This document shows positions 12,536 through 24,272 of a stretch of DNA of 64,000 bases, in pieces. The stretch is from an uncultured Massilia sp. Its GTDB lineage: Bacteria > Pseudomonadota > Gammaproteobacteria > Burkholderiales > Burkholderiaceae_D. Positions within the stretch are counted from its first letter, which is position 1. Every line of letters begins with the position of its first letter. The notes under the pieces were generated by a model. The model was not told the origin of the DNA. It did not search any database and saw only the letters and a list, made by a program, of their open reading frames with translations. Both the position numbers and the translations under genes were made by a program. Location: positions 237,894 through 301,893 of the forward strand of contig NZ_CAJYEB010000010.1 of NCBI RefSeq assembly GCF_913773735.1. The letters run 5' to 3'.

Positions 12536-12744
12536 CGACAACGGGGTTCCGGACGCTTTTATATGCGCTTGGGAAATATAAGACTGGCATTTTATATCCA
12601 AATCCAGCACTTCTGCACGAAGGCCCCGGCGTTGCCGGGGGCCGTTCCGCACAACACCTTAATATGACAGAAATATTGTTCACAGGTATATTCTTGCTTG
12701 CAATATTTCACTGGCCATCTTGTTCGCTGATCCGGGAGATTCCG

Positions 12745-15700
12745 ATGCCTGTCGTGCTGCGCGCGCTGTTCCTGGTACTGCTGTGCTGCGGGGCGGCCCG
12801 CGCGCAGACGACGGTCGACTCGTTCACCCCGGACGGCGAAGTGCGCGAGGTGAGGCAGGCGGTCGCGCGCTTCTCGGCGCCGATGGTGGCGTTCGGCGAC
12901 TTGCGTGCCCCCGCGCCGTTCGCCGTCGACTGCCCGGTGGCGGGCAGCGGGCGCTGGATCGACGAGCGCAGCTGGAGCTACGACTTCGAGCGCGACCTGC
13001 CGGGCGCCGCCTCCTGCCGCTTCACGCTGGCGCCCGACGCGCGCGACCTGGCCGGCCGGCCGCTCGCGGGCCGGCGCGCGTTCGCCGTGCGCACCGGCGG
13101 CCCGGCCGTGCTGGAATCGCTGCCGGGCGAGGGCGCCGGCGGCATCGACGAGCAGCAGGTGTTCCTGCTGGCGCTGTCGGCCCCGGCCAGCGACGAGAGC
13201 ATCCTGGCGCACGCCTGGTGCCGCGCCGACGGCATCAACGAAAAGATCGGCGTGCGCGTCGTCACCGGCGACACGCGCCTGCAACTGCTGCTGCGCAACC
13301 GCTGGTTCGCCGGCCAGGCCGTCGATCCCGATCCCGATCACGAGCGCGGCGCGGACAAGGACCGGGCCTGGAACGCATCCGAGGCGCACGTGCGCGCCGC
13401 CGAGCGGGCCGGGCGGCTGCGCCGGCTGGTGGCGCTGCAGTGCAAGCGCACCCTGCCGGCGGCCACCGAGGTCGCGCTGGTCTGGGGCGCCGGCGTGGCC
13501 GCGCCGAACGGCGTGGCGACCAGCCAGGAACAGGCGCTCGGCTTCAAGACCCGCGCCGACTTCACGGCCCGCTTCAATTGCGAGCGCGTCAGCGCGCGCT
13601 CCCAGTGCATCCCGTTCCAGCCCATGCGCGTCGACTTCAGCGCGCCGGTCAAGGCCGCGGACGCGGCCCGGGTCTACCTGGAGGGGCCCGGCGGCAAGCG
13701 CTGGCCGGCGGCGCCCGGCCGCGACGGCCGCGACCGGCAGGACGGCCTGGTGGACAGCGTCAGCCTGCCGGGACCGTTCCCGGAACAGGCGCGCTTCACG
13801 TTGCACCTGCCGGCCGGGCTGCGCGACGATGCCGGCCGCGCGCTCGTCAACGCCGGCCGCTTCCCGCTGGCCGTGCGCACGGCCGAGCAGCCTCCCTTGA
13901 TCAAGTTCGCGGCGCCGTTCGGCATCGTCGAGGCCAGCGGCGAGCGCCTGCTGCCGGTCACCGTGCGCAACGTCGAGGCCAAGCTGGCCGTAGGGTTGGC
14001 CAATGAGCAACACGGTGGCGGCGCCACCTTGCGCCTGGGCGCGGCGCGCGCGGCCGACGTGCTGGCCTGGATGCGCAAGGTGGCCGGGCCGGGCGGCGGC
14101 TTGACCCCGGACCAGCCGTCCGGCAAGCAGCTGGAGACCTCGATCTTCGCCGGCGTCAAGGACAGCGCGCTACAGCGCTTCGACCTGCCCAGGCCGCGCG
14201 GGCGGCGCGCCTTCGAGGTGATCGGCATTCCGCTGCGCCAGCCGGGCTTCTATGCCGTCGAGCTGCGCAGCGCGCGCCTGGGCGCGGCCATCAATCCGAA
14301 GGGCCGCGTGGCCTATGTGCGCAGCGCCGCCCTGGTCACCAACATGACCGCCCACTTCAAGCACGGCGCGCAATCCTCGCTGGTGTGGGTGACCTCGCTC
14401 GACAAGGGCGCGCCGGTGGCCGGCGCGCGCGTCGACGTGCGCGACTGCGCCGCCCGGCTGCTGTGGAGCGGCACCAGCGACGCCGCGGGCGTGGCCCACA
14501 TCCGCAAGGCGCTGGCGCCGGCGCGCTGCAAGACCGGCAACAGCTACTTCATCGCCGCCAGCCGCGGCGACGACTTCACCTTCACGCTGTCGGACTGGCA
14601 GCAGGGCATCGAAGCCTGGCGCTTCCACCTGCCGACCGGCGCGCGCGACGAGGACAGCCGCCTGGTCGCCACCGTGTTCGACCGCACGCTGCTGCGCGCC
14701 GGCGAGACGGTGCACATGAAGCACTTCCTGCGCCGCCGCACCCAGGGCGGTTTCGCGCTGGTGCGCGCGAGCGAGCCCGCGCCGAAGTCGGTGCAGGACT
14801 GGCGCGCCCAGGAACTCGGCCCGGACAAGTCGGCGCTGCCGGCGCGCGGCTTCCTGGTCCACCAGGGCAGCGGCGAGAAGACCGAGTTCCCGATCGAATG
14901 GGACGCCAACGGCAGCGCCACCGGCGAATGGGCAATCCCGGCCGAGGCAAAACTGGGCGCCTACGACGTGCTGGTCGGCGGCCAGGTGGCCGGGCAGTTC
15001 CGCGTCGAGCAGTTCCGCGTGCCGACCATGAAGGCGGTGCTGGCCGGGCCGAAGCAGCCGGCGGTGGCCCCGGCGGCGGTGGCGCTGGACGCCCAGGTCA
15101 GCTACCTGGCCGGCGGGCCGGCCGGGCAGGCGCCCGTCAAGCTGCGCAGCGTGGTGCAGGACACCAGCGTGCAGTTCCCCGGCTACGAGGATTTCTCGCT
15201 GGGCAGCGGCGACGTGCGCGAGGGCGTGGTGCGCCGGGAAGAGAGCGGCGAGGAGATGGACGAGGAGGGCGGCGAGGAAGACGGCGCCGGCGGCCAGGAC
15301 GTGGCGCGCACGCAGTCGCTGCAGCTGGACCGCGCCGGCGGCGCGCGCATCGTGGTCGACGGCCTGGCGCCGGTCGAGCGGCCGAAGAGCCTGCTGGCCG
15401 AGCTGTCCTACCAGGACGCCAATGGCGAGACGCTGACCGCCTCCACGCGCGTGCCGCTGTGGCCGGCGCAGTACGTGCTGGGCATCAAGCCGGACGGCTG
15501 GCTGCTGCGGCGCGACGCCATGAAGTTCCAGGTGGTGGTGCTGGACGTGGGCGGCAAGCCGGTGGCGAACGTGCCGGTGGCGGTCGACTTCCTCAAGCGC
15601 CATACCTATTCGCACCGGCGCCGCATGGTGGGCGGCTTCTACGCCTACGAGAACAGCAGCGAGATCAAGCGCCTGGGCGAAGCCTGCGGCGGCGTCACCG

Positions 15701-18531
15701 ATGCGCGCGGCCTGCTGCTGTGCGAGGTGCGCGCGCCCGAGGACGGCGACCTGATCCTGCGCGCCCGCGCCGCCGACCCGCAGCGGCGCGCGGCCGCGGC
15801 CAACCGCGAGGTCTGGGTCGCGGGCGCGGACGAACAGTGGTTCGCCGGCGCCGACCACGACCGCATCGACCTGCTGCCCGAGCACAAGCGCTACGAGCCG
15901 GGCCAGCAGGCGCGCTTCCAGGTGCGCAGCCCGTTCCGGCGCGCGACCGTGCTGGTGACGGTGGAGCGCGAGGGCATCCTCGACACCTATGTGCGCCGGC
16001 TGTCCGGCACCGACCAGCAGATCGCGATCCCCGTCAAGGACAGCTACGCGCCGAACGTGTTCGTGTCGGCCCTGGTGGTGCGCGGGCGCGTGGCCGGCGT
16101 GCAGCCGACCGCGCTGGTCGACCTCGGCAAGCCGGCCTACAAGCTCGGCATCGCGCCGATCCGCGTCGGCTGGGGCGCGCACGAGCTGAAGGTCGAGGTG
16201 GCGGCCGACAAGCCGGCGTACAAGGTGCGCGAGCGCGCCCGGGTGACGGTGCGCGTGCGCGCGCCCGGCGGCGGGCGGCCGGCGGCGGGCACCGAGGTGG
16301 CGCTGGCCGCCGTCGACGCCGGCCTGCTGGAACTGATGCCCAACGAGAGCTGGAACCTGCTCGACACGATGATGCGCGAACGCAGCCTGCAGGTGGAGAC
16401 GGCGACGGCGCAGATGCAGGTGGTGGGCAAGCGCCACTACGGCCGCAAGGCCTTCCCGCACGGCGGCGGCGGCGGGCGCGCGGCGGGGCGCGAGCTGTTC
16501 GACACGCTGCTGCTGTGGAAGGGCAGGGTGGCGCTGGATGCGAACGGCGAGGCGCGGGTCGAGGTGCCGCTGAACGATGCGCTGACGTCGTTCCGCATCG
16601 TCGCCGTGGCCAGCGGCGGGGCCGGCCTGTTCGGCACCGGTGCCACCGAGATCCGCAGCACGCAGGACCTGATGCTGGTGTCCGGCCTGCCGCCGCTGGT
16701 GCGCGAAGGCGACCGCCTGCGCGCCGGCTTCACCGTGCGCAACGCGTCCGACCGGCCGCTGCAGGTGCGCCTGCAAGCCGGGATGGGCACGAGCGACGCC
16801 ACGCTGCGCGCGCTGGCGCCGCAGGACGTGTCCCTGGCCCCGGCCGAGGCGCGCGAGATCGGCTGGGACGTCCAGGTGCCGGCCGGCGCGGCGGCGCTAC
16901 GCTGGGACGTGCGCGCCGACGTCGACGGCGATGCCGCCGCGTCCGACCGCATCCGCTTGAACCAGCAGGTCGGCGCGGCCGTGCCGGTGCGCACGCTGCA
17001 GGCGACGCTGGTGCAGCTCGACGGCGCCACGGTGCTGCCGGTCGAGCGCCCCGCCGACGCGCTGCCGGGACGCGGCGGCGTGCGCACCACCCTGCAGGCG
17101 CGGCTGGGCGCGGACCTGCCCGGCGTGCGCGACTACATGGCGGCCTATCCCTATACCTGCTTCGAGCAGCGCACCTCGCGCGCGGTGGCGCTGGGCGACG
17201 GCGCCATGTGGGACACCGTCGCCGCCACGCTGCCGGCCCACCTGGACGGCGACGGCCTGGTCAAGTACTTCGCGCCGATGGACCAGGGCAGCGACGTGCT
17301 CACGGCCTACGTGCTGTCGCTGACCGCCGACGCCGGCTTCGCCATCCCCGACGACCTGAAGACGCGCATGCAGGCCGGCCTCGCGGCCTTCGTCGAGGGC
17401 CGCATCGTGCGCGGCAATGCGCGCGCCAGCGGCGAACTGGCGGTGCGCAAGCTGGCGGCGCTGGAAGCGCTGTCGCGCGCCGGCCTGGTGCGGCCCGGCA
17501 TGCTCGACACGCTGGCGGTGCAGCCGAACCTGTGGCCCACGTCGGCCTTGATCGACTGGTACCTCGTGCTGCGCCGCACGCCCGACCTGGCGCAGCGCGA
17601 CACCCACCTGGCGCAGGCGGCGCAGGTGCTGCGCGCGCGCCTGAACCTGCAGGGCACGACGCTCGGCTTTTCCACCGAGCGCGGCGACGCCTGGTGGTGG
17701 CTGATGACGTCCGGCGACACCAACGCCAACCGGCTGCTGCTGGCCGTGCTCGACGATCCGGCCTGGCGCCAGGACGCTGGCCGGCTGGCGCGCGGCGCGC
17801 TGGGCCGCCAGCGCCGCGGCCACTGGGACACGACCACCGCGAATGCCTGGGGCACGGTGGCGCTCAAGCGCTTTTCCGAGACCTTCGAGCGCGCGCCGGT
17901 GACGGGCGACACCAGCGTGGTGCTGGCCGGCGCCGCCGGCAAGCCGCTGGCCTGGACCGGCACGATCCCGGCCGACAAGCCGGCCGTCGTGCTGCAGGCT
18001 TGGCCGGAGGGGCGCGCCAGCCTGACGCTGCGCCAGCTCGGCGGCGGCAAGCCATGGGCGACGATCCAGAGCCTGGCGGCCGTGCCGCTGGCGGCGCCGC
18101 TGTCCTCGGGCTACCGCATCGTGCGCACCGTGACCCCGGTCGAGCGCAAGGACAAGGGAACATGGAGCCGCGGCGACGTCTACCGCGTGCGCCTGGACAT
18201 CGATGCCCAGGCCGACATGAGCTGGGTCGTGGTCGACGACCCGATCCCCGCCGGCGCCAGCGTGCTCGGCTCGGGCCTGGGCCGCGATTCGCAGATCGCC
18301 ACCGCGGGCGAGCGCCGCGGCGGGTGGGTGTGGCCGGCCTACGAGGAGCGCACGCACGCCGGTTTCCGTTCCTACTTCGAATGGGTGCCCAAGGGCCGCT
18401 TCAGCGTCGAGTACACGGTGCGCCTGAACAATGCCGGCGCCTTCTCGCTGCCACCGACGCGCGTGGAGGCCATGTACAGCCCCGAGATGTTCGGCGAGCT
18501 GCCGAACGCCGGCGTCGCGGTGCGCCAGTGA
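12745..18531 (+). CDS. Bacterial alpha-2-macroglobulin
   Basis: About 1928 aa with a signal peptide, MG domains (VFDRTLLRAGETV) and the thioester motif CFEQ at 17158-17169. Followed by pbpC. Confidence 0.93.
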   Translation: MPVVLRALFLVLLCCGAARAQTTVDSFTPDGEVREVRQAVARFSAPMVAFGDLRAPAPFAVDCPVAGSGRWIDERSWSYDFERDLPGAASCRFTLAPDARDLAGRPLAGRRAFAVRTGGPAVLESLPGEGAGGIDEQQVFLLALSAPASDESILAHAWCRADGINEKIGVRVVTGDTRLQLLLRNRWFAGQAVDPDPDHERGADKDRAWNASEAHVRAAERAGRLRRLVALQCKRTLPAATEVALVWGAGVAAPNGVATSQEQALGFKTRADFTARFNCERVSARSQCIPFQPMRVDFSAPVKAADAARVYLEGPGGKRWPAAPGRDGRDRQDGLVDSVSLPGPFPEQARFTLHLPAGLRDDAGRALVNAGRFPLAVRTAEQPPLIKFAAPFGIVEASGERLLPVTVRNVEAKLAVGLANEQHGGGATLRLGAARAADVLAWMRKVAGPGGGLTPDQPSGKQLETSIFAGVKDSALQRFDLPRPRGRRAFEVIGIPLRQPGFYAVELRSARLGAAINPKGRVAYVRSAALVTNMTAHFKHGAQSSLVWVTSLDKGAPVAGARVDVRDCAARLLWSGTSDAAGVAHIRKALAPARCKTGNSYFIAASRGDDFTFTLSDWQQGIEAWRFHLPTGARDEDSRLVATVFDRTLLRAGETVHMKHFLRRRTQGGFALVRASEPAPKSVQDWRAQELGPDKSALPARGFLVHQGSGEKTEFPIEWDANGSATGEWAIPAEAKLGAYDVLVGGQVAGQFRVEQFRVPTMKAVLAGPKQPAVAPAAVALDAQVSYLAGGPAGQAPVKLRSVVQDTSVQFPGYEDFSLGSGDVREGVVRREESGEEMDEEGGEEDGAGGQDVARTQSLQLDRAGGARIVVDGLAPVERPKSLLAELSYQDANGETLTASTRVPLWPAQYVLGIKPDGWLLRRDAMKFQVVVLDVGGKPVANVPVAVDFLKRHTYSHRRRMVGGFYAYENSSEIKRLGEACGGVTDARGLLLCEVRAPEDGDLILRARAADPQRRAAAANREVWVAGADEQWFAGADHDRIDLLPEHKRYEPGQQARFQVRSPFRRATVLVTVEREGILDTYVRRLSGTDQQIAIPVKDSYAPNVFVSALVVRGRVAGVQPTALVDLGKPAYKLGIAPIRVGWGAHELKVEVAADKPAYKVRERARVTVRVRAPGGGRPAAGTEVALAAVDAGLLELMPNESWNLLDTMMRERSLQVETATAQMQVVGKRHYGRKAFPHGGGGGRAAGRELFDTLLLWKGRVALDANGEARVEVPLNDALTSFRIVAVASGGAGLFGTGATEIRSTQDLMLVSGLPPLVREGDRLRAGFTVRNASDRPLQVRLQAGMGTSDATLRALAPQDVSLAPAEAREIGWDVQVPAGAAALRWDVRADVDGDAAASDRIRLNQQVGAAVPVRTLQATLVQLDGATVLPVERPADALPGRGGVRTTLQARLGADLPGVRDYMAAYPYTCFEQRTSRAVALGDGAMWDTVAATLPAHLDGDGLVKYFAPMDQGSDVLTAYVLSLTADAGFAIPDDLKTRMQAGLAAFVEGRIVRGNARASGELAVRKLAALEALSRAGLVRPGMLDTLAVQPNLWPTSALIDWYLVLRRTPDLAQRDTHLAQAAQVLRARLNLQGTTLGFSTERGDAWWWLMTSGDTNANRLLLAVLDDPAWRQDAGRLARGALGRQRRGHWDTTTANAWGTVALKRFSETFERAPVTGDTSVVLAGAAGKPLAWTGTIPADKPAVVLQAWPEGRASLTLRQLGGGKPWATIQSLAAVPLAAPLSSGYRIVRTVTPVERKDKGTWSRGDVYRVRLDIDAQADMSWVVVDDPIPAGASVLGSGLGRDSQIATAGERRGGWVWPAYEERTHAGFRSYFEWVPKGRFSVEYTVRLNNAGAFSLPPTRVEAMYSPEMFGELPNAGVAVRQ

Positions 18532-20732
18532 AGGGCATCGCGGCGGCGCTGCTGGCGGCGTGCGTGTCGGTCGCGGCGGGCGCCGCGGTGCCGACGCCGC
18601 AGGAGGTGAGGGCGGCCTGGCGCGCGTCCGACGCGCGCCTGCTCGACCGCCACGGCGTGCTGCTGGACACGGTGCGCATCGACATGGCGGCGCGGCGCCA
18701 GGCCTGGGTGGCGCTGGACGACATCTCGCCGGCGCTGGGCCGCGCCGTGCTGCAGGCCGAGGACCAGCGCTTCATGGAGCACGGCGGCATCGACCTGCGC
18801 GCGGCCGGCAAGGCCGCCTGGGACAACCTGTTCGACCGGGCCGGCCGCGAACGCGTGCGCGGCGCCTCGACCATCACCATGCAGCTGGCCGGCATGCTCG
18901 ACCCGAAGCTGGCGCCCCGTTCGGCCGGCCGCAGCTGGGGCGCCAAGTGGGACCAGGCGCTGGCCGCGCGCGAACTGGAAGCCGGCTGGACCAAGCGCCA
19001 GATCCTCGAGGCCTACCTGAACCTGGCCAGCTTCCGCGGCGAGCTGCAGGGCATCGGCGCGGGATCGCGCGGCCTGTTCGGCAAGGCGCCGTCCGGGCTG
19101 GACGCGGGCGAGGCGGCGATCCTGGCCAGCCTGCTGCGCGCGCCCGGCGCCCCGGGCGCGCAACTGGCGCGCCGCGCCTGCGCGCTGGCGCGCGAGATCG
19201 ACGCGCGCGCCGACTGCGCCGCGATCGAATGGCAGACGCTGGCGGCGCTGGCGCGCAGCAATCCGCCGGCCGCGGTGGCGCCGCTGGCGCGCCGCCTGGC
19301 CCGCGAGGCCGGCGCGGCCGTGCGCACCACGCTGGACGCCGACGTGCAGCGGGTGGCGGCCGGCGCGCTGCGGCGCCACCTGGCCCAGCTGGCCGGGCGC
19401 AACGTCGGCGATGGCGCCGTGGTCGTGCTGGACAATGCCAGCGGCGAGATCCTGGCGTACGTGGCGAATGCCGGCGCCGGCGAAGTGGACGGCGCGACGG
19501 CGCTGCGCCAGGCCGGCTCCACCCTGAAGCCCTTCCTGTACGAGCTGGCGCTGGAACGCGGCCAGCTGACCGCCGCCTCGTTGCTGGACGACACGCCGGT
19601 CGGCATCCCCGTCGCGGGCGGCCTGTACGTGCCGCAGAACTACGACCACCAGTACCGCGACGCCGCCAGCGTGCGCACCAGCCTGGCCGGCTCGCTCAAC
19701 GTCCCGGCCGTGCGCACGCTGGTGCTGGTGGGGCAGGAGCGCTTTCACGAGCGCCTGCGCCTGCTGGGCATCTCCAGCCTGACCGAGGCGCCGGAATTCT
19801 ACGGCTGGTCGCTGGCGCTGGGGTCGGGCGACGTCAGCCTGCTGGAACTGGCCAATGCCTACCGCACGCTGGCCAACGGCGGCCTGCAGGGCCCCGTCAC
19901 GGTGGCGCCCGGCGGCGCGGCGCGCGCTGCGGTGGGCACCACCCGCGTGCTCGACGCGCGCGCCAGCTTCATCGTGTCCGACATCCTGTCCGACCGCGCC
20001 GCGCGCAGCGTGACCTTCGGCCTGCGCAACGAGCTGGCCACCGGCTACTGGAGCGCGGTCAAGACCGGCACCAGCAAGGACATGCGCGACAACTGGTGCC
20101 TGGGCTATTCGGACCGCTACACGGTCGGCGTCTGGGTCGGCAATTTCGACGGCCGCTCGATGTGGGACGTGTCCGGCGTCGCGGGCGCGGCGCCGGTATG
20201 GCGCGACGTGATGGACTGGCTGCACCGCGACCGCCCGGGCCGCGCGCCCGCGCCGCCGCCAGGCGTGGTGCGCCAGGAGGTGGCGTACGCGCCCGCCGTC
20301 GAGCCGCGCCGCGCCGAATGGTTCGTGCGCGGCACCGAAACGGCCGTCGTCGAGATGCTGGAGGCGGCGCGGCGCACGCCGAAGATCGTCTACCCGGCCG
20401 ACGGCAGCCTGGTCGCGCTCGACCCGGACATCCCGGCGCCGCTGCAGCGCCTGCGCTTCCGTGCCCAGGCCGGCAAGGGACTGCAGTGGGAACTCGACGG
20501 CCAGGCGTACGGCCCGGCCGATGGCGACGCCGGCTGGCAGCCGGTGCCCGGCCGCCACGAACTGAAGCTGGTGGATGCCGGCGGGCGGGTGCTGTCCGCC
20601 GCCGGCTTCGAGGTGCGCGGCGCGCAGCCCGCGCCTCAGGCGCCGGCGGTGTCGACGCGCTCGACCAGCACCGGCGGCTCGTCCGGCGAAGCGTCCGGCG
20701 GCGGCACGAACAGCGGCGAATCGGAGCGGTAG
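18528..20732 (+). CDS. pbpC: Penicillin-binding protein 1C
   Basis: GTG overlaps the A2M stop. Glycosyltransferase motifs EDQRF and GASTITMQLA; transpeptidase motifs STLK, SLN, KTGTS. Confidence 0.92.
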   Translation: MKGIAAALLAACVSVAAGAAVPTPQEVRAAWRASDARLLDRHGVLLDTVRIDMAARRQAWVALDDISPALGRAVLQAEDQRFMEHGGIDLRAAGKAAWDNLFDRAGRERVRGASTITMQLAGMLDPKLAPRSAGRSWGAKWDQALAARELEAGWTKRQILEAYLNLASFRGELQGIGAGSRGLFGKAPSGLDAGEAAILASLLRAPGAPGAQLARRACALAREIDARADCAAIEWQTLAALARSNPPAAVAPLARRLAREAGAAVRTTLDADVQRVAAGALRRHLAQLAGRNVGDGAVVVLDNASGEILAYVANAGAGEVDGATALRQAGSTLKPFLYELALERGQLTAASLLDDTPVGIPVAGGLYVPQNYDHQYRDAASVRTSLAGSLNVPAVRTLVLVGQERFHERLRLLGISSLTEAPEFYGWSLALGSGDVSLLELANAYRTLANGGLQGPVTVAPGGAARAAVGTTRVLDARASFIVSDILSDRAARSVTFGLRNELATGYWSAVKTGTSKDMRDNWCLGYSDRYTVGVWVGNFDGRSMWDVSGVAGAAPVWRDVMDWLHRDRPGRAPAPPPGVVRQEVAYAPAVEPRRAEWFVRGTETAVVEMLEAARRTPKIVYPADGSLVALDPDIPAPLQRLRFRAQAGKGLQWELDGQAYGPADGDAGWQPVPGRHELKLVDAGGRVLSAAGFEVRGAQPAPQAPAVSTRSTSTGGSSGEASGGGTNSGESER

Positions 20733-21661
20733 GGCACGCGCCCGGCCGGCACGTGGATGGCGGCCGGATCGAGGTGCAGGTCCTGGTCGTCGAAGAACAG
20801 GTGGGCGCGGAAGGCCTTGACCACCTTCGACTTGGGCACGCCGCCCAGGAAGAAGATCTCGTTCACGTACACGCCCCAGTGGCGCAAGGTGTTAATTACC
20901 CGCATCTCGGCCGGCGCGCTGCGCGCGGTGACGATGGCGATGCGCAGCGGCGAGGCGTCCGCGCCGAACGGCAGCCGCTCCTGCAGGCGCGCCAGCTTGC
21001 GCAGCAGGATCGCGTAGGGGCCGTCGTTCATCGGTTCGTTGCGCTTCTCGTCCTCGACGGTGTGGAAGCGGTCCAGTCCCTCGGTCTTGTAGACCAGTTC
21101 GCTGGCATCGTCGAACAGCACGGCGTCGCCGTCGAAGGCGATGCGCACCTGGTCTTCCGGCGGCGCCTCGGCCGCGTGCGGCGGCGGCTTGAGCACCGCC
21201 GCGGCGCAGGCCTGGGCGTCGATCACGCGCTGGGCGTCGTCGACGTTGGTGGTCAGGAACAGGTCGACGGCGAAGGCGTCGAGGTAGTCGACCACCGACT
21301 CGCCGCCGGTGAAGGCATGGCGCGCGATCGGCAGCCCGCGCGAGCGGATGTTGTTGAACACGCGCATGCCGGTCTCCGGGCTGTTGCGCGACATGACGAC
21401 CACCTCGACCAGCGGCTTGCCGTCCGCCCCCGCGTGGCGGTTCAGGCCGAGCAGGGCGCGCACCAGCGCCATGCCGGTGCCGTCGCGCAGCGGCTCGTTC
21501 TCGCGCTCGAGCATGTAGGCGCGGTATTCGTCCAGCCCGCTGCGCGGATTGCGGGCATGCCTGGCCTTGCCGGTCTTGTAGACGGCGTCGGCCTCGGCCA
21601 GGTCGAACAGGGCGGTGGCGGAAATGCCGACCACGAGGGTATCGGAGGGATCGAAGGGCAT
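20636..21661 (-). CDS. 5'-nucleotidase (PF06189-type)
   Basis: LVVGISATALFDL, VVVMSRNSP, RIAFDGDAVLF and HLFFDDQ motifs. Confidence 0.88.
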   Translation of the reverse strand: MPFDPSDTLVVGISATALFDLAEADAVYKTGKARHARNPRSGLDEYRAYMLERENEPLRDGTGMALVRALLGLNRHAGADGKPLVEVVVMSRNSPETGMRVFNNIRSRGLPIARHAFTGGESVVDYLDAFAVDLFLTTNVDDAQRVIDAQACAAAVLKPPPHAAEAPPEDQVRIAFDGDAVLFDDASELVYKTEGLDRFHTVEDEKRNEPMNDGPYAILLRKLARLQERLPFGADASPLRIAIVTARSAPAEMRVINTLRHWGVYVNEIFFLGGVPKSKVVKAFRAHLFFDDQDLHLDPAAIHVPAGRVPYRSDSPLFVPPPDASPDEPPVLVERVDTAGA

Positions 21662-21824
21662 GGCGGTCCGGAGCGGTTGGTTGGGGGCGTCACGGCCGAG
21701 TTTACCGGACGCACGGCCAGCCTAGCGTATTCCTTTTAGGAAAACTCCGTACGGGCAAGCGACGCGGCGTTTGAGCCCGAGCAAGACGTATCGCCGCGGG
21801 GGCGTGGTTTTGCGGATTTTTCTT

Positions 21825-21843
21825 GATAATGATTCTCATTTAC
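21825..21843 (+). promoter_or_regulatory. Fur box overlapping a sigma70 -35
   Basis: GATAATGATTCTCATTTAC matches GATAATGATAATCATTATC at 15/19. -35 TTTACA (21839-44), 17-bp spacer, -10 TACAGT (21862-67). Confidence 0.78.
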
Positions 21844-21897
21844 AAAGCGCGAACGATGCGCTACAGTGGTTGTTCCGACAGCCACCCGATCCCTGCC

Positions 21898-22149
21898 ATG
21901 ACCATTTCCGATTCCGCCTGCCGCTGCATCGTCCTGGCCGCCACCGGCGCCGGCAAGGTGACCACCTGCGCCGCGTGCGGCACGGTCCACGTCGCGATGG
22001 CGCAGATGTCCCTGCGCCTGACGCGCGCGACGTTCCAGGACCTGGCCGCGCTGGTGGGGCCCGCCGCGCTGGCCGTGGCCAGCGACGGCGCCATCGTGTC
22101 ACACCGTGACGACCACGCCGGGCGCCTCCCGGACCGCGCGCTGCACTGA
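21898..22149 (+). CDS. Small CxxC-containing hypothetical protein (83 aa)
   Basis: MTISDSACRC...TTCAACGTVHVAMAQMSLRL. Lies directly downstream of the promoter, and its stop overlaps the GAGGAG RBS of the next gene. Confidence 0.65.
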   Translation: MTISDSACRCIVLAATGAGKVTTCAACGTVHVAMAQMSLRLTRATFQDLAALVGPAALAVASDGAIVSHRDDHAGRLPDRALH

Positions 22150-22159
22150 GGAGCCGACC

Positions 22160-23353
22160 ATGTGCGACCACGCCCGTTCTCCCTCCGCCCGCCACGACGA
22201 CGCCTGCGGCTCGCGCCGCCGCCGCCTGTGGGAACTGCCGACCAACTGCCACTGCCCGATCATCGGCGTGTGCCTGCCGCTGGCGCTGCTGCGCAAGCTG
22301 GTGGGCAAGGCCGCGGCGACGCCGGTGCAGGGCGACGACTACGACCTGCACGTCTGGTCCGTGCACGAATGCGGCAACCGCAGCCGCATGGCCGACCTGC
22401 TGCAGCGCACGCTGGACGAGCGCTTCGCCGGCGTGATCCGCCAGTTCAAGGGCGCGCGCGACGGCGACGCGCTGCTGGCGCTGTGGCGCCGCGCGATGGA
22501 CAGCGGCGACACGGCCGGCGCCTTCTGGGCCGCGCTCAGCCACCCGCGCTGCGACGCCTGGATGACCGAGTCGATCGTGCGCGACATGCACATGATCCAG
22601 CACCAGGCCGGCGCCAGCGTGCGCGTCGACATCGGCCGCTTCGCCGAGCTGCAGCGCCAGAACGCGCTGCTGGCGGCGGAACTCGAGCAGACCCGCGACA
22701 AGGCCGCGCGCGCCGCCGAGGCGCGCGCGAAGGACGCCGCGCGCACGACCGAGCAGGCGGCGCAGCTGCGCGCCGAACTGGCCCAGCGCGACACCGCGAT
22801 CGAGGCGCTGCGGCGCCAGCGCGACGCGCTGGAAGCCGCGCTGCCCGACATGCGCGACCGCGAGCGCCTGCTGCGCCGGGTCGAGGAACTGGAAGCGCGC
22901 GAACGGGCGCTGGCCGACAGGCTGGCGCAGCTGCGCCAGCGCGCGGCGCGCGCACGCCAGGAAGCGGCGGCCCACCCGCCGCCGCCGCCCGCACCGGCGG
23001 CGCCGCGCACCCCCGTGGTGGTGCCGATCGCGCTGGCCGACAAGACGGTGCTGTGCGTGGGCGGGCGCAGCGCCAACGTGCCGAACTACCGCGAACTGCT
23101 GGAAAAGGAGGGCGCCCGCTTCATGCACCACGACGGCGGCATCGAGCAGGCCAGCGAACTGCTGGACACGAGCCTGGCCGCGGCCGACCTGGTGATCTGC
23201 CAGACCGGCTGCATCAGCCACCAGGCCTACTGGCGCGTGAAGGACTTCTGCAAGCGCACCGGCAAGCGCTGCCTGTTCGTCGACAACCCGAGCACGTCGA
23301 GCCTCTCGTCCTGCCTGCGCAAGGTGGCCGAGGCGGCGCCGGCGCTGGACTGA
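22160..23353 (+). CDS. DUF2325-domain protein with Cys/His-rich N-terminus and coiled coil
   Basis: N-terminal RRRLWEL..CHCPIIGVC; C-terminal VLCVGGR...DLVICQTGCISHQAYWRVKDFCKRTGKRC, typical of DUF2325. Confidence 0.82.
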   Translation: MCDHARSPSARHDDACGSRRRRLWELPTNCHCPIIGVCLPLALLRKLVGKAAATPVQGDDYDLHVWSVHECGNRSRMADLLQRTLDERFAGVIRQFKGARDGDALLALWRRAMDSGDTAGAFWAALSHPRCDAWMTESIVRDMHMIQHQAGASVRVDIGRFAELQRQNALLAAELEQTRDKAARAAEARAKDAARTTEQAAQLRAELAQRDTAIEALRRQRDALEAALPDMRDRERLLRRVEELEARERALADRLAQLRQRAARARQEAAAHPPPPPAPAAPRTPVVVPIALADKTVLCVGGRSANVPNYRELLEKEGARFMHHDGGIEQASELLDTSLAAADLVICQTGCISHQAYWRVKDFCKRTGKRCLFVDNPSTSSLSSCLRKVAEAAPALD

Positions 23354-23369
23354 ACGGGGCCGGCGCCGT

Positions 23370-24272
23370 TCACGTCCCGGCGCCGAAATACGCGGTGGCC
23401 GCGTCCACGAACGCCTCGCGCAGGCGCGAGCGGTCGTCGCGCCGCCACGCCAGCGCGATCTCCAGTTCCAGGTGTTCCATGCGGTCCTCGAGCTCCCGGT
23501 AGATCACGCCGGGGTGCGCGATGTTGACGATCTGCGACGGCAGCAGCGCGATGCCCACGCCCGCCGCGATCAGGCTCACCATCGTCGGCATCTGCCAGGC
23601 GCTCATGCCCAGGCGCGGGCTGAAGCCCGCGGCCTGGCAGGCCATCAGGGTCTTGGCGTGCAGGCTGAACACGCGGTCGGCGGGGAACATCATGAAGGTC
23701 TCGCCGGCCAGGCTGGCCAGCGGAATCGCCGGCAGGGCCGCGAGCGGATGCGCGCGCGGCAGCACGGCGATCATCCGCTCGCGCTTGATCACGCGCATTT
23801 CCAGGTCGTTGGCGCCGCCCAGCGGCAGGCGCACGATGCCCAGGTCGATCCGGCGCGCCTTCAGGTCCTCGATCTGTTCGACCGACGTCGCCTCGCGCAG
23901 GTCGAACGCCACGTCCGCATGGTGCTTGCGGAACTGCGTCAGCAGTTCCGGCAGCAGCCCGTAGCTGACCGATCCCACGAATCCCAGCACGATCGTTCCC
24001 ATCAGCCCCGCCGCGGCCTGGCGCGTGTGCGCGACCGCCTGCGCCTGCTGGTCTTCCAGGCGCCGGGCCTCCTTGAGGAACACGCGGCCGGCGTCGGTCA
24101 GGGCGATGGTCCGGTTCGCGCGGTCGAACAGCGCCACGCCGATGTGCTCTTCCAGCCGCTGGATCGCCTGGCTCAACGGCGGCTGCGACATGTGCAGGCG
24201 CAGCGCCGCGCGGCCGAAGTGCAGTTCCTCGGCGACGGCGATGAATTGCGCGAGCAGGCGGGACGAGATCAT
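23370..24272 (-). CDS. LysR-family transcriptional regulator
   Basis: FIAVAEELHFGRAALRLHMSQPPLSQAIQRLE helix-turn-helix; divergent from the TRAP operon. Confidence 0.95.
   Translation of the reverse strand: MISSRLLAQFIAVAEELHFGRAALRLHMSQPPLSQAIQRLEEHIGVALFDRANRTIALTDAGRVFLKEARRLEDQQAQAVAHTRQAAAGLMGTIVLGFVGSVSYGLLPELLTQFRKHHADVAFDLREATSVEQIEDLKARRIDLGIVRLPLGGANDLEMRVIKRERMIAVLPRAHPLAALPAIPLASLAGETFMMFPADRVFSLHAKTLMACQAAGFSPRLGMSAWQMPTMVSLIAAGVGIALLPSQIVNIAHPGVIYRELEDRMEHLELEIALAWRRDDRSRLREAFVDAATAYFGAGT

Follow-up and report, generated by a model that had tools for sequence, protein, structure and literature searches.

A two-gene operon behind a conserved Fur box in a Massilia-group bacterium, and its candidate role as an iron-status module built on a long DUF2325 protein

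A two-gene operon that lies behind a Fur box is described here from the genome (5.88 Mb, 69% GC) of a soil bacterium of the Massilia group, whose nearest protein relatives are found in Massilia and other Oxalobacteraceae. The stretch of DNA that was analysed, called the window below, comprises 64,000 nt (contig C10:237894-301893), and the operon is given in the window's own numbering. It begins with the near-palindromic operator GATAATGATTCTCATTTAC (21825-21843), recognised by its match to the Fur consensus and by its conservation in eight species, and with a predicted sigma-70-type promoter found by a consensus scan (21839-21867, plus strand), in which the -35 hexamer TTTACA (21839-21844) and the -10 hexamer TACAGT (21862-21867) are separated by a spacer of 17 nt. 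The first gene, A (21898-22149, plus strand), encodes 83 aa and was recognised from its translation, its GC content at third codon positions (GC3) and its homologues. The TGA stop of A is directly followed by GGAG, read from the sequence as the Shine-Dalgarno of the second gene (22150-22153, plus strand), and this second gene, B (22160-23353, plus strand), encodes 397 aa and starts 10 nt past the stop of A. Such a layout suggests translational coupling between the two genes; the TGA(A)GGAG junction is kept in seven of the eight closest relatives, and the remaining one (L002) has TGAACGGAAACG instead. An earlier note on this DNA had named these sequence features, and all of them were found in place, including the 83-aa open reading frame (ORF) with its stop at the ribosome-binding site (RBS) of B.

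Fur boxes were scored against the 19-bp E. coli consensus on both strands, and the operator matches it at 15 of the 19 positions on the forward strand and at 16 on the reverse strand, in an overlap with the -35 hexamer that agrees with the 15/19 box proposed earlier. The predicted promoter is the only promoter-like match of the consensus scan in 2.1 kb, for which shuffled sequences give an expectation of 0.1. In the whole genome there are five sites of at least 16/19, against 0.013 expected at this base composition. One of them is the operator of A-B (C10:259718), and the genes behind three of the others were assigned through Pfam, i.e., a TonB-dependent receptor gene on contig C49, a PepSY_TM gene on C18 and a PepSY_TM-flavodoxin reductase gene on C12; the last site (C14:10868) stands before a 122-aa ORF, termed X here. 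Boxes of 15/19 are found beside another TonB-receptor gene and before ORFs that were read as feoAB from their position only. The genome also has a Fur gene (C41:73603-74031), the product of which is 54% identical to an approximate E. coli-like Fur query, in addition to two other Fur-family genes. Given both the TonB-receptor and PepSY_TM genes behind the top boxes and the presence of Fur itself, the consensus picks out a real iron regulon in this organism.

The conservation of the operator points in the same direction. In each of eight related species, the box is identical or differs by one base, and the pattern TGA[TG]AATGATTC[TG]CATTTACA is essentially invariant, while the flanks vary. The -35 hexamer, a -10 of the form TA[CG]A[GT]T at constant spacing and the ATG of A are also kept, around a spacer of variable sequence, and in this alignment the box and promoter together have the form of a classic phylogenetic footprint. 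For a wider survey, 127 loci, each with a full-length orthologue of B, were placed in the same orientation; 112 of them were non-redundant, and a box was called at 13/19 or better within 1 kb upstream of B. Boxes of 14-15/19 precede four of six full-length homologues of about 30% identity, and in other proteobacterial families the long form of B has boxes of 15/19 at -58 (L198), 14/19 (L200) and 13/19 at -41 (L205).

Some results of this survey weaken the case for Fur control and have to be set beside those that support it. An upstream box was found at 79 of the 112 non-redundant loci and in 19 of the 112 downstream stretches used as a control, a control figure that is not clean because neighbouring iron operons fall inside those stretches. 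No recognisable Fur box was found within 1 kb upstream in Undibacterium, in two Rhodoferax loci and in one Aquabacterium locus, and induction of A-B by iron limitation in this organism is a prediction made from sequence. It may also be supposed that the match is fortuitous or non-functional here, or that B is exported through a twin-arginine translocation (Tat) signal, an alternative that we find barely credible in either of its forms. For the first form (the second is taken up with protein B below), it can be said that consensus scans are no evidence of function; against it, five sites were observed where 0.013 were expected, TonB-receptor or PepSY_TM genes stand behind three of the other four, and the operator is retained in different genera. 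Given the quality, position and conservation of the operator, together with the parallel behaviour of the genes S and X and of Cj1384c of Campylobacter jejuni, all of which are described below, it is very likely that Fur represses the operon and that iron starvation therefore induces it. The iron-starvation induction through Fur that had been proposed is thus upheld as far as Fur control is concerned, by the footprint and by the survey, and iron-dependent expression in this bacterium would follow from it.

The product of gene A has the pattern C8-x-C10...C24-x-x-C27-G-x-V-H31, which forms a Cys/His knuckle, after which come an amphipathic helix, a tail that varies and His83 at the C-terminus. 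A word-based search returned only two homologues, and 26 distinct ones, in several genera, were found through the neighbourhoods of B; judging from these sequences, A evolves fast. The conserved pattern is C8-x-[C/H]10...C24-x-x-C27-G-x-[V/I]-H31, followed by a helix with R40, F46 and L49, and in a 16-sequence alignment C24, C27, R40 and H83 are invariant. Of the two motifs that the earlier note had seen in A, CRC and CxxCGxxH, both are present, the second is conserved as CxxCGx[VI]H and the first only as C-x-[C/H]; the invariant C-terminal His was absent from that description. This His is found in 24 of the 26 homologues, and it is kept regardless of the stop codon and of the gap between A and B, which may be of 10 nt or of about 140 nt. 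The two exceptions, in Massilia sp. TN1-12 and YIM B02763 (L058 and L059; about 110 nt upstream of B), are truncated versions of only 33 aa, which have lost both the helix and the terminal His and retain the stop-RBS junction to B. This truncation implies that A, or its C-terminal half, is dispensable in those two species.

The genomic distribution of A is narrow. Within the genus, A is found in eight of 110 genomes and B in 60, with A always in single copy and directly 5' of B, and at the family level seven of ten solid copies of A lie 5' of B. In another genus, the gene behind a Fur box and A encodes some 90 aa, which correspond only to the coiled-coil start of S, a second DUF2325 protein described below, without the DUF2325 domain itself (L213, G104:C224, 2994-3640; L214, G071:C24, approximately 1800-2377). 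Copies of A thus always adjoin either B or such a coiled-coil-only fragment of S, termed mini-S here, and given that the constant partner of A is a coiled-coil segment, A probably docks on the segment that B and S have in common.

One other explanation of gene A is that it is a leader or upstream ORF, the translation of which only sets the expression of B. No Shine-Dalgarno is seen in the sequence before the ATG of A, the stop of A abuts the RBS of B, most genomes with B have no A, and two species have it in a form reduced to 33 aa, all of which would fit an ORF of this type. On the other hand, A is conserved as a protein across genera at 23-58% identity (in the Cys knuckle, R40, F46 and the terminal His), this conservation is independent of the stop codon and of the distance to B, its GC3 is 0.95, and in the other genus just mentioned it has its own Fur box and a different partner, mini-S. 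The protein-level conservation and the GC3 show that A is a real protein rather than just a leader ORF, and we consider the leader explanation very improbable.

The family to which A may be related was sought in curated collections, where A passes the cut-off of none of the Pfam and NCBIfam families; against DUF6686 (PF20391), A scores 13.7 and 18.0 bits, which is below the gathering threshold of 23.9. The weak matches of A in the Protein Data Bank (PDB) and Pfam are all zinc-ribbon-like, and none is significant. Zinc-ribbon mini-proteins, such as eS27, HVO_2753-like proteins, RPA12 and LysW, share with A two short Cys knuckles that are some 13-15 residues apart, and they are the only PDB sequences touched by the profile of A, at E values of 0.45-3 that are non-significant and show no homology.

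A further comparison is with Bfd, a small, Fur-regulated [2Fe-2S] protein induced by iron starvation, the ligands of which are arranged as C-x-C...C-x-x-C. The C-x-[C/H]...C-x-x-C of A resembles this arrangement, but the Cys pairs of A are 13 residues apart rather than about 31, there is an additional helix as well as a terminal His, and the second ligand of A is His in most genera. Membership of A in the Bfd family was rejected on this spacing and on the absence of a Fer2_BFD match at E<=0.1.

Protein B has three main parts. Its N-terminal domain (aa 1-157; 22160-22630), delimited by AlphaFold2 (AF2) and conservation, is followed by a coiled coil (aa 158-263; 22631-22948), by a Pro/Ala-rich linker (aa 264-295; 22949-23044) and by the DUF2325 domain (aa 296-391), which with a short tail and the stop occupies 23045-23353, all on the plus strand. 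The DUF2325 family (PF10087) matches residues 297-388 with E=9e-24 and 83.9 bits, against a cut-off of 33.6, and beyond this domain no part of A or B reaches a curated Pfam or NCBIfam threshold. The 397-aa protein with a long coiled coil and a DUF2325 domain that had been read from the sequence is therefore borne out by the AF2 model as well as by Pfam. Based on an alignment of 44 sequences, the model of B has a mean predicted local distance difference test (pLDDT) of 82, with an eight-helix N-terminal domain at residues 28-152, helices of the coiled coil at 158-227 and 231-263, a linker that falls below 50 at residues 262-288 and is variable in both length and sequence in the alignment, and a four-stranded alpha/beta DUF2325 domain with a fold of four beta-alpha units (296-391). 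When the N-terminal domain (aa 1-157) was modelled alone, pLDDT rose to 89, with a predicted template modelling score of 0.82.

The N-terminal domain has no relative in the PDB by Foldseek (best match with E=1.5 and a template modelling score of about 0.35), and no Pfam family matches it. Run against the PDB, a sequence profile returned coiled coils and nothing else, and the coiled-coil segment itself has only coiled-coil matches in Pfam, NCBIfam and PDB searches. With full-length B, Foldseek returns weak generic Rossmann, flavodoxin-like and receiver matches at E>=1.7e-3. The structure prediction and fold search that had been proposed for B have in this way provided a confident N-terminal model and a DUF2325 fold, and no significant fold match. 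A BtrH_N assignment of the N-terminal domain, which appears as a weak match in 10 of 60 members (E>=0.0015), was dismissed, given that the domain is all-helical.

The profile of the N-terminal domain, run against 1.84 billion proteins, recovered 1,702 cluster representatives, nearly all of 390-470 aa and with the domain in the N-terminal position, and a C-terminal DUF2325 domain was found in nine of ten representatives sampled. Given these results, the three-part architecture is fixed and defines a large family. Across 60 representatives of 30-49% identity, the near-invariant residues of the N-terminal domain are R20, W24, C32, P33, G36, C38, H64, R74, W109, W123, H128, H144, M145, H148 and Q149, and those of the DUF2325 domain are C299, G301, G302, R303, H324, D325, G326, G327, E329, D343, C347, S353, H354, Y357, K361, C364 and C371. 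Protein B also carries the motifs of the long-form family, H-C-P/S...G-x-C, W109, W123, H128 and H144-M-x-x-H148. The N-terminal domain had been described as CHC-rich, and the CHC motif is indeed present, although only H31-C32-P33 of that segment is conserved.

The start of B deserves attention in relation to the second form of the export alternative, in which an SRRRR-hydrophobic N-terminus would act as a Tat signal. Residues 18-48 bear a superficial likeness to a twin-arginine signal, and B is a borderline case in hydropathy, with a Kyte-Doolittle maximum of 1.6. However, the supposed hydrophobic region holds the near-invariant C32, P33, G36 and C38 (and H31 in closer relatives), it contains acidic residues in distant homologues, and in the AF2 model it is part of the helical domain, at a pLDDT above 93. 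Both a Tat signal and a membrane helix were rejected on the grounds that this start is conserved, acidic in distant homologues and modelled within a globular domain. The proteins are likely to be cytoplasmic and not an uptake system, as had been proposed, in line with the lack of a convincing signal peptide or membrane segment and of an attached transporter; the neighbours of A-B include no uptake gene, which also agrees with the earlier statement that no receptor, transporter or siderophore gene is attached.

Two further resemblances of B may be considered here. The top Foldseek match to the DUF2325 domain is the N-terminal Rossmann domain of the siroheme synthase CysG, which shares the beta-alpha-beta core and a Gly-rich loop that follows strand 1 (VGGR in B). 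However, this match has E=1.7e-3, about 20% identity and a root-mean-square deviation of 4-8 A, CysG does not have the Cys/His set of DUF2325, and DUF2325 has four strands; judged from the model, it is a generic fold resemblance and not evidence of a tetrapyrrole function. The second resemblance is to proteins with haem regulatory motifs, such as Irr of Bradyrhizobium, given that C32-P33 of B has a His before it and a hydrophobic residue after it. This pair is invariant in closer relatives and kept in at least 90% of the 60 wider representatives, and is Cys-Ser in the clade of 30% identity. In B, the pair lies inside a folded helix of the AF2 model, not in a flexible loop. A two-residue pattern that becomes Cys-Ser in the 30% clade is a lead only.

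The genes linked to B in other genomes place it in the context of iron. The layout of Fur box, hemP (PF10636), X and B is found at 54 loci of Janthinobacterium, Duganella, Pseudoduganella and Rugamonas; A-B is found at 32 loci, plus three of hemP-A-B, in a subset of Massilia, in Undibacterium and in Rhodocyclaceae; and B stands alone, behind a Fur box at -40 to -120, at 36 loci, in most Massilia. Thus, hemP lies upstream of X-B or A-B at 57 related loci, and in the 54 operons with X the last gene is B. The association with hemP, bfd or feo for which the neighbourhood was to be examined has been found for hemP in these relatives, and not in the source genome, where tblastn detected no hemP. The six loci that were inspected for neighbouring genes showed no haem transporter gene beside hemP-X-B. 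HemP proteins act as regulators of iron/haem receptor genes (PMC7377471; bioRxiv 10.1101/2022.02.10.479982), and in Burkholderia, where Fur controls hemP, the 3' end of this gene carries BrrF, a small RNA with an iron-sparing function (PMC7377471). The HemP/HmuP/ChuP regulators of haem uptake are small, cytoplasmic and Fur-box-controlled, in addition to the linkage of hemP with B, but none of A, B and X is homologous to HemP.

Protein X has generally about 108 aa, and 122 aa in this genome (C14:10868-11295), where it stands behind the 16/19 box already mentioned. It is characterised by the motifs LHLMSHY, IERHL and ATCQQLSxQW (ATCxQLSxQW here), and has no relative in Pfam, NCBIfam or the PDB; hhalign detected no relationship between A and X, nor between X and the N-terminal domain of B. 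Within the genus, 88 of 110 genomes encode it, and all 30 that were checked have a Fur box before it, at -30 to -69.

The other linked gene, S (C14:163323-163925, 200 aa), is the only other DUF2325 gene of the genome, and comprises a coiled coil and the second half of DUF2325, with a PF10087 score of 35.5 bits over this half domain. It lies behind a 15/19 Fur box (locus C14:163323-163985), which means that both DUF2325 genes of the genome are preceded by Fur boxes. S is restricted to genomes that bear B (22 of 60, against none of the 50 without B; p=2e-7), and a Fur box precedes all 22 copies. At a locus labelled Rhodoferax ferrireducens (L100), S is found about 2 kb upstream of B, on the minus strand and divergent to it, with a weak Fur-like box between them, and two ORFs adjoining S were read there as bacterioferritin from sequence alone, with no Pfam run. 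In the source genome, S is transcribed divergently from the gene of a glycine-zipper protein, the N-terminus of which is hydrophobic and signal-like.

The nearest experimental precedent comes from another phylum. The gene cj1384c of C. jejuni encodes a 104-aa stand-alone DUF2325 protein with seven Cys, which could not be purified and the function of which is unknown (PMC9426514). The pair cj1383c-cj1384c responds strongly to iron and loses its repression in a fur mutant, and the Fur repression motif is found at cj1384c (PMC4491227, PMC3815106); PerR and RacRS control this gene as well, and it is the one most strongly induced under violet-blue light (PMC9426514). The view that nothing in this system had been characterised experimentally has to be given up in this respect, given that a DUF2325 gene was already known to be iron-responsive and Fur-derepressed (PMC4491227, PMC3815106), a characterisation that covers regulation only. 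Cj1384c is like B in having PF10087, in being Cys-rich, in belonging to a two-gene unit and in its link to Fur. It differs in consisting of DUF2325 alone, without the N-terminal domain and coiled coil, in lying by katA, in its control by PerR and RacRS, and in its phylum. In the papers found to mention DUF2325, the long form is not described.

This precedent also gives rise to an explanation in which the operon serves mainly in protection from oxidative stress, with thiol-rich proteins as a redox buffer or sensor and an operator that serves a peroxide-responsive regulator of the Fur family as much as Fur itself. The adjacency of cj1384c to katA, its control by PerR as well as Fur and its rank as the most induced gene in violet-blue light, from which its authors suggest a redox or ROS-quenching (reactive oxygen species) role (PMC9426514), would favour such a function, and B has 13 Cys, in a genome with two further Fur-family genes. 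However, the operator is a motif that also precedes TonB-receptor and PepSY_TM genes in this genome, and no linked catalase or peroxidase gene was found in the six loci inspected, where the context consists of hemP, X, ORFs read as bfr, and DUF4198, ApbE and flavodoxin-reductase genes. Given this, we regard a mainly protective role as improbable.

The explanation that we favour, in which belief and doubt are about evenly balanced, is that the A-B operon is repressed by Fur, and would be switched on when intracellular iron is low, to produce a cytoplasmic two-protein module. Protein B would most likely be a dimer held together by its coiled coil, and one or both of its Cys/His-rich domains would bind iron, an Fe-S cluster or haem, which would allow B to report or relay the iron or haem status of the cytoplasm to other components of the iron-starvation response. 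In this role B would be a second-tier sensor or adaptor below Fur, and neither a transporter nor an uptake enzyme. Protein A would be its accessory subunit, a small zinc-ribbon or rubredoxin-like knuckle with a helix, the C-terminal His of which may contribute to a metal site.

Under the same regulation, B, together with A, may instead be a carrier, scaffold or salvage factor for iron, Fe-S clusters or haem, which under scarcity would keep iron cofactors or pass them on to priority enzymes, or strip dispensable enzymes of them. Both domains of B are Cys/His-rich, the Rossmann-like DUF2325 domain has its conserved residues on the loops after the beta-strands, the four-ligand C-x-C...C-x-x-C of A recalls the Fur-regulated [2Fe-2S] protein Bfd (a likeness of pattern only), and the ORFs read as bacterioferritin adjoin B and S in Rhodoferax, all of which may be expected of a carrier. 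Against this, there is no match to Isc, Suf, Nfu, Bfd or any other carrier family, a coiled coil of 105 residues within a fixed three-part architecture is more typical of sensors and adaptors, and the co-operonic HemP has been described as a regulator (PMC7377471; bioRxiv 10.1101/2022.02.10.479982). A carrier function is thus rather unlikely, and the sensor or adaptor remains the preferred role of B.

A number of results nevertheless weigh against the sensor or adaptor itself. The absence of A from most genomes with B and its reduction to 33 aa in two species indicate that A is dispensable. Sets of Cys, His and Met are conserved in both domains of B across the 60 representatives, in agreement with the conservation that had been expected of its Cys/His residues, but some N-terminal Cys, C71 and C131 among them, are not kept in the wider family; these two are conserved in closer relatives only. 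No curated-family Fe-S, haem or zinc motif of Pfam or NCBIfam matches any part of A or B. The fold searches produced no significant match, and the cofactor and the role are guesses for this reason.

An extension of this proposal to the whole family is more tentative, and we would sooner doubt it than expect it. The long DUF2325 proteins would in that case form a widespread and hitherto unrecognised class of cytoplasmic sensors of iron or haem status, acting below Fur as regulators or adaptors of a second tier, with A, X, HemP and S as interchangeable partners, the N-terminal domain as a new cofactor fold, and DUF2325 as an iron or Fe-S sensing unit shared with Cj1384c.

Fur-regulated DUF2325 genes, without a function, were already known from one organism. 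The long architecture with its new N-terminal domain, the partners A, X and S, the fusion with hemP and the breadth of the link to Fur are new. Fur regulons have been mapped in detail, yet for many of the genes conserved in them no function is known. The A-B operon, with hundreds of relatives that also keep such proteins behind a Fur box, is a real and widespread part of the bacterial response to iron shortage, linked to Fur by sequence. The genes A, B, S and X form a coherent four-gene set, linked in some genera through operon fusion and elsewhere through operators of a common type, and together cover at least 1,700 sequence clusters. Should the proteins indeed sense or pass on the status of iron, haem or Fe-S, iron homeostasis in the Burkholderiales, where the known second tier consists of HemP and the small RNA BrrF, would gain an extra protein layer. 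It would also lead directly to the function of DUF2325; the sole DUF2325 gene studied experimentally is among the most iron-responsive of C. jejuni and is equally unexplained. These predictions are open to ordinary genetics in Janthinobacterium and Massilia and to anaerobic biochemistry in E. coli.

A few further features were recorded at other Fur boxes and linked loci. At C18:95645, the 16/19 box is followed by the PepSY_TM gene, which was assigned through Pfam, and then by ORFs taken for DUF2271 and DUF4198 without a Pfam run. At C12:50792-55205, the 16/19 box lies between a 565-aa ORF on the minus strand and an 880-aa protein, which has PepSY_TM and flavodoxin domains and an unannotated C-terminal part. 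In Janthinobacterium sp. GW458P (L085, 5224-8511), a cluster of flavodoxin/NAD-binding reductase, ApbE and DUF4198 genes converges on hemP-X-B.

Finally, the surroundings of A-B in the window include genes for an alpha-2-macroglobulin, PBP1C, a divergent 5'-nucleotidase, a convergent LysR protein, a TRAP transporter and a CoA-transferase, none of which is iron-related, and Rfam matched no RNA family over positions 21000-24000. The bacterial alpha-2-macroglobulin gene and the gene of a PBP1C-type penicillin-binding protein that follows it (together 12700-20732) are a known pairing. The gene directly upstream of A is that of the 5'-nucleotidase (PF06189), and an inverted repeat, TTCCTTTTAGGAA (21730-21742), is found between this divergent gene and the Fur box. 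Its core, (AAGAA)TATTCCTT..AG[GA]AA, is kept in seven of eight aligned species, while its flanks vary, and this repeat may serve the nucleotidase gene as an operator or provide the A-B promoter with a second input.

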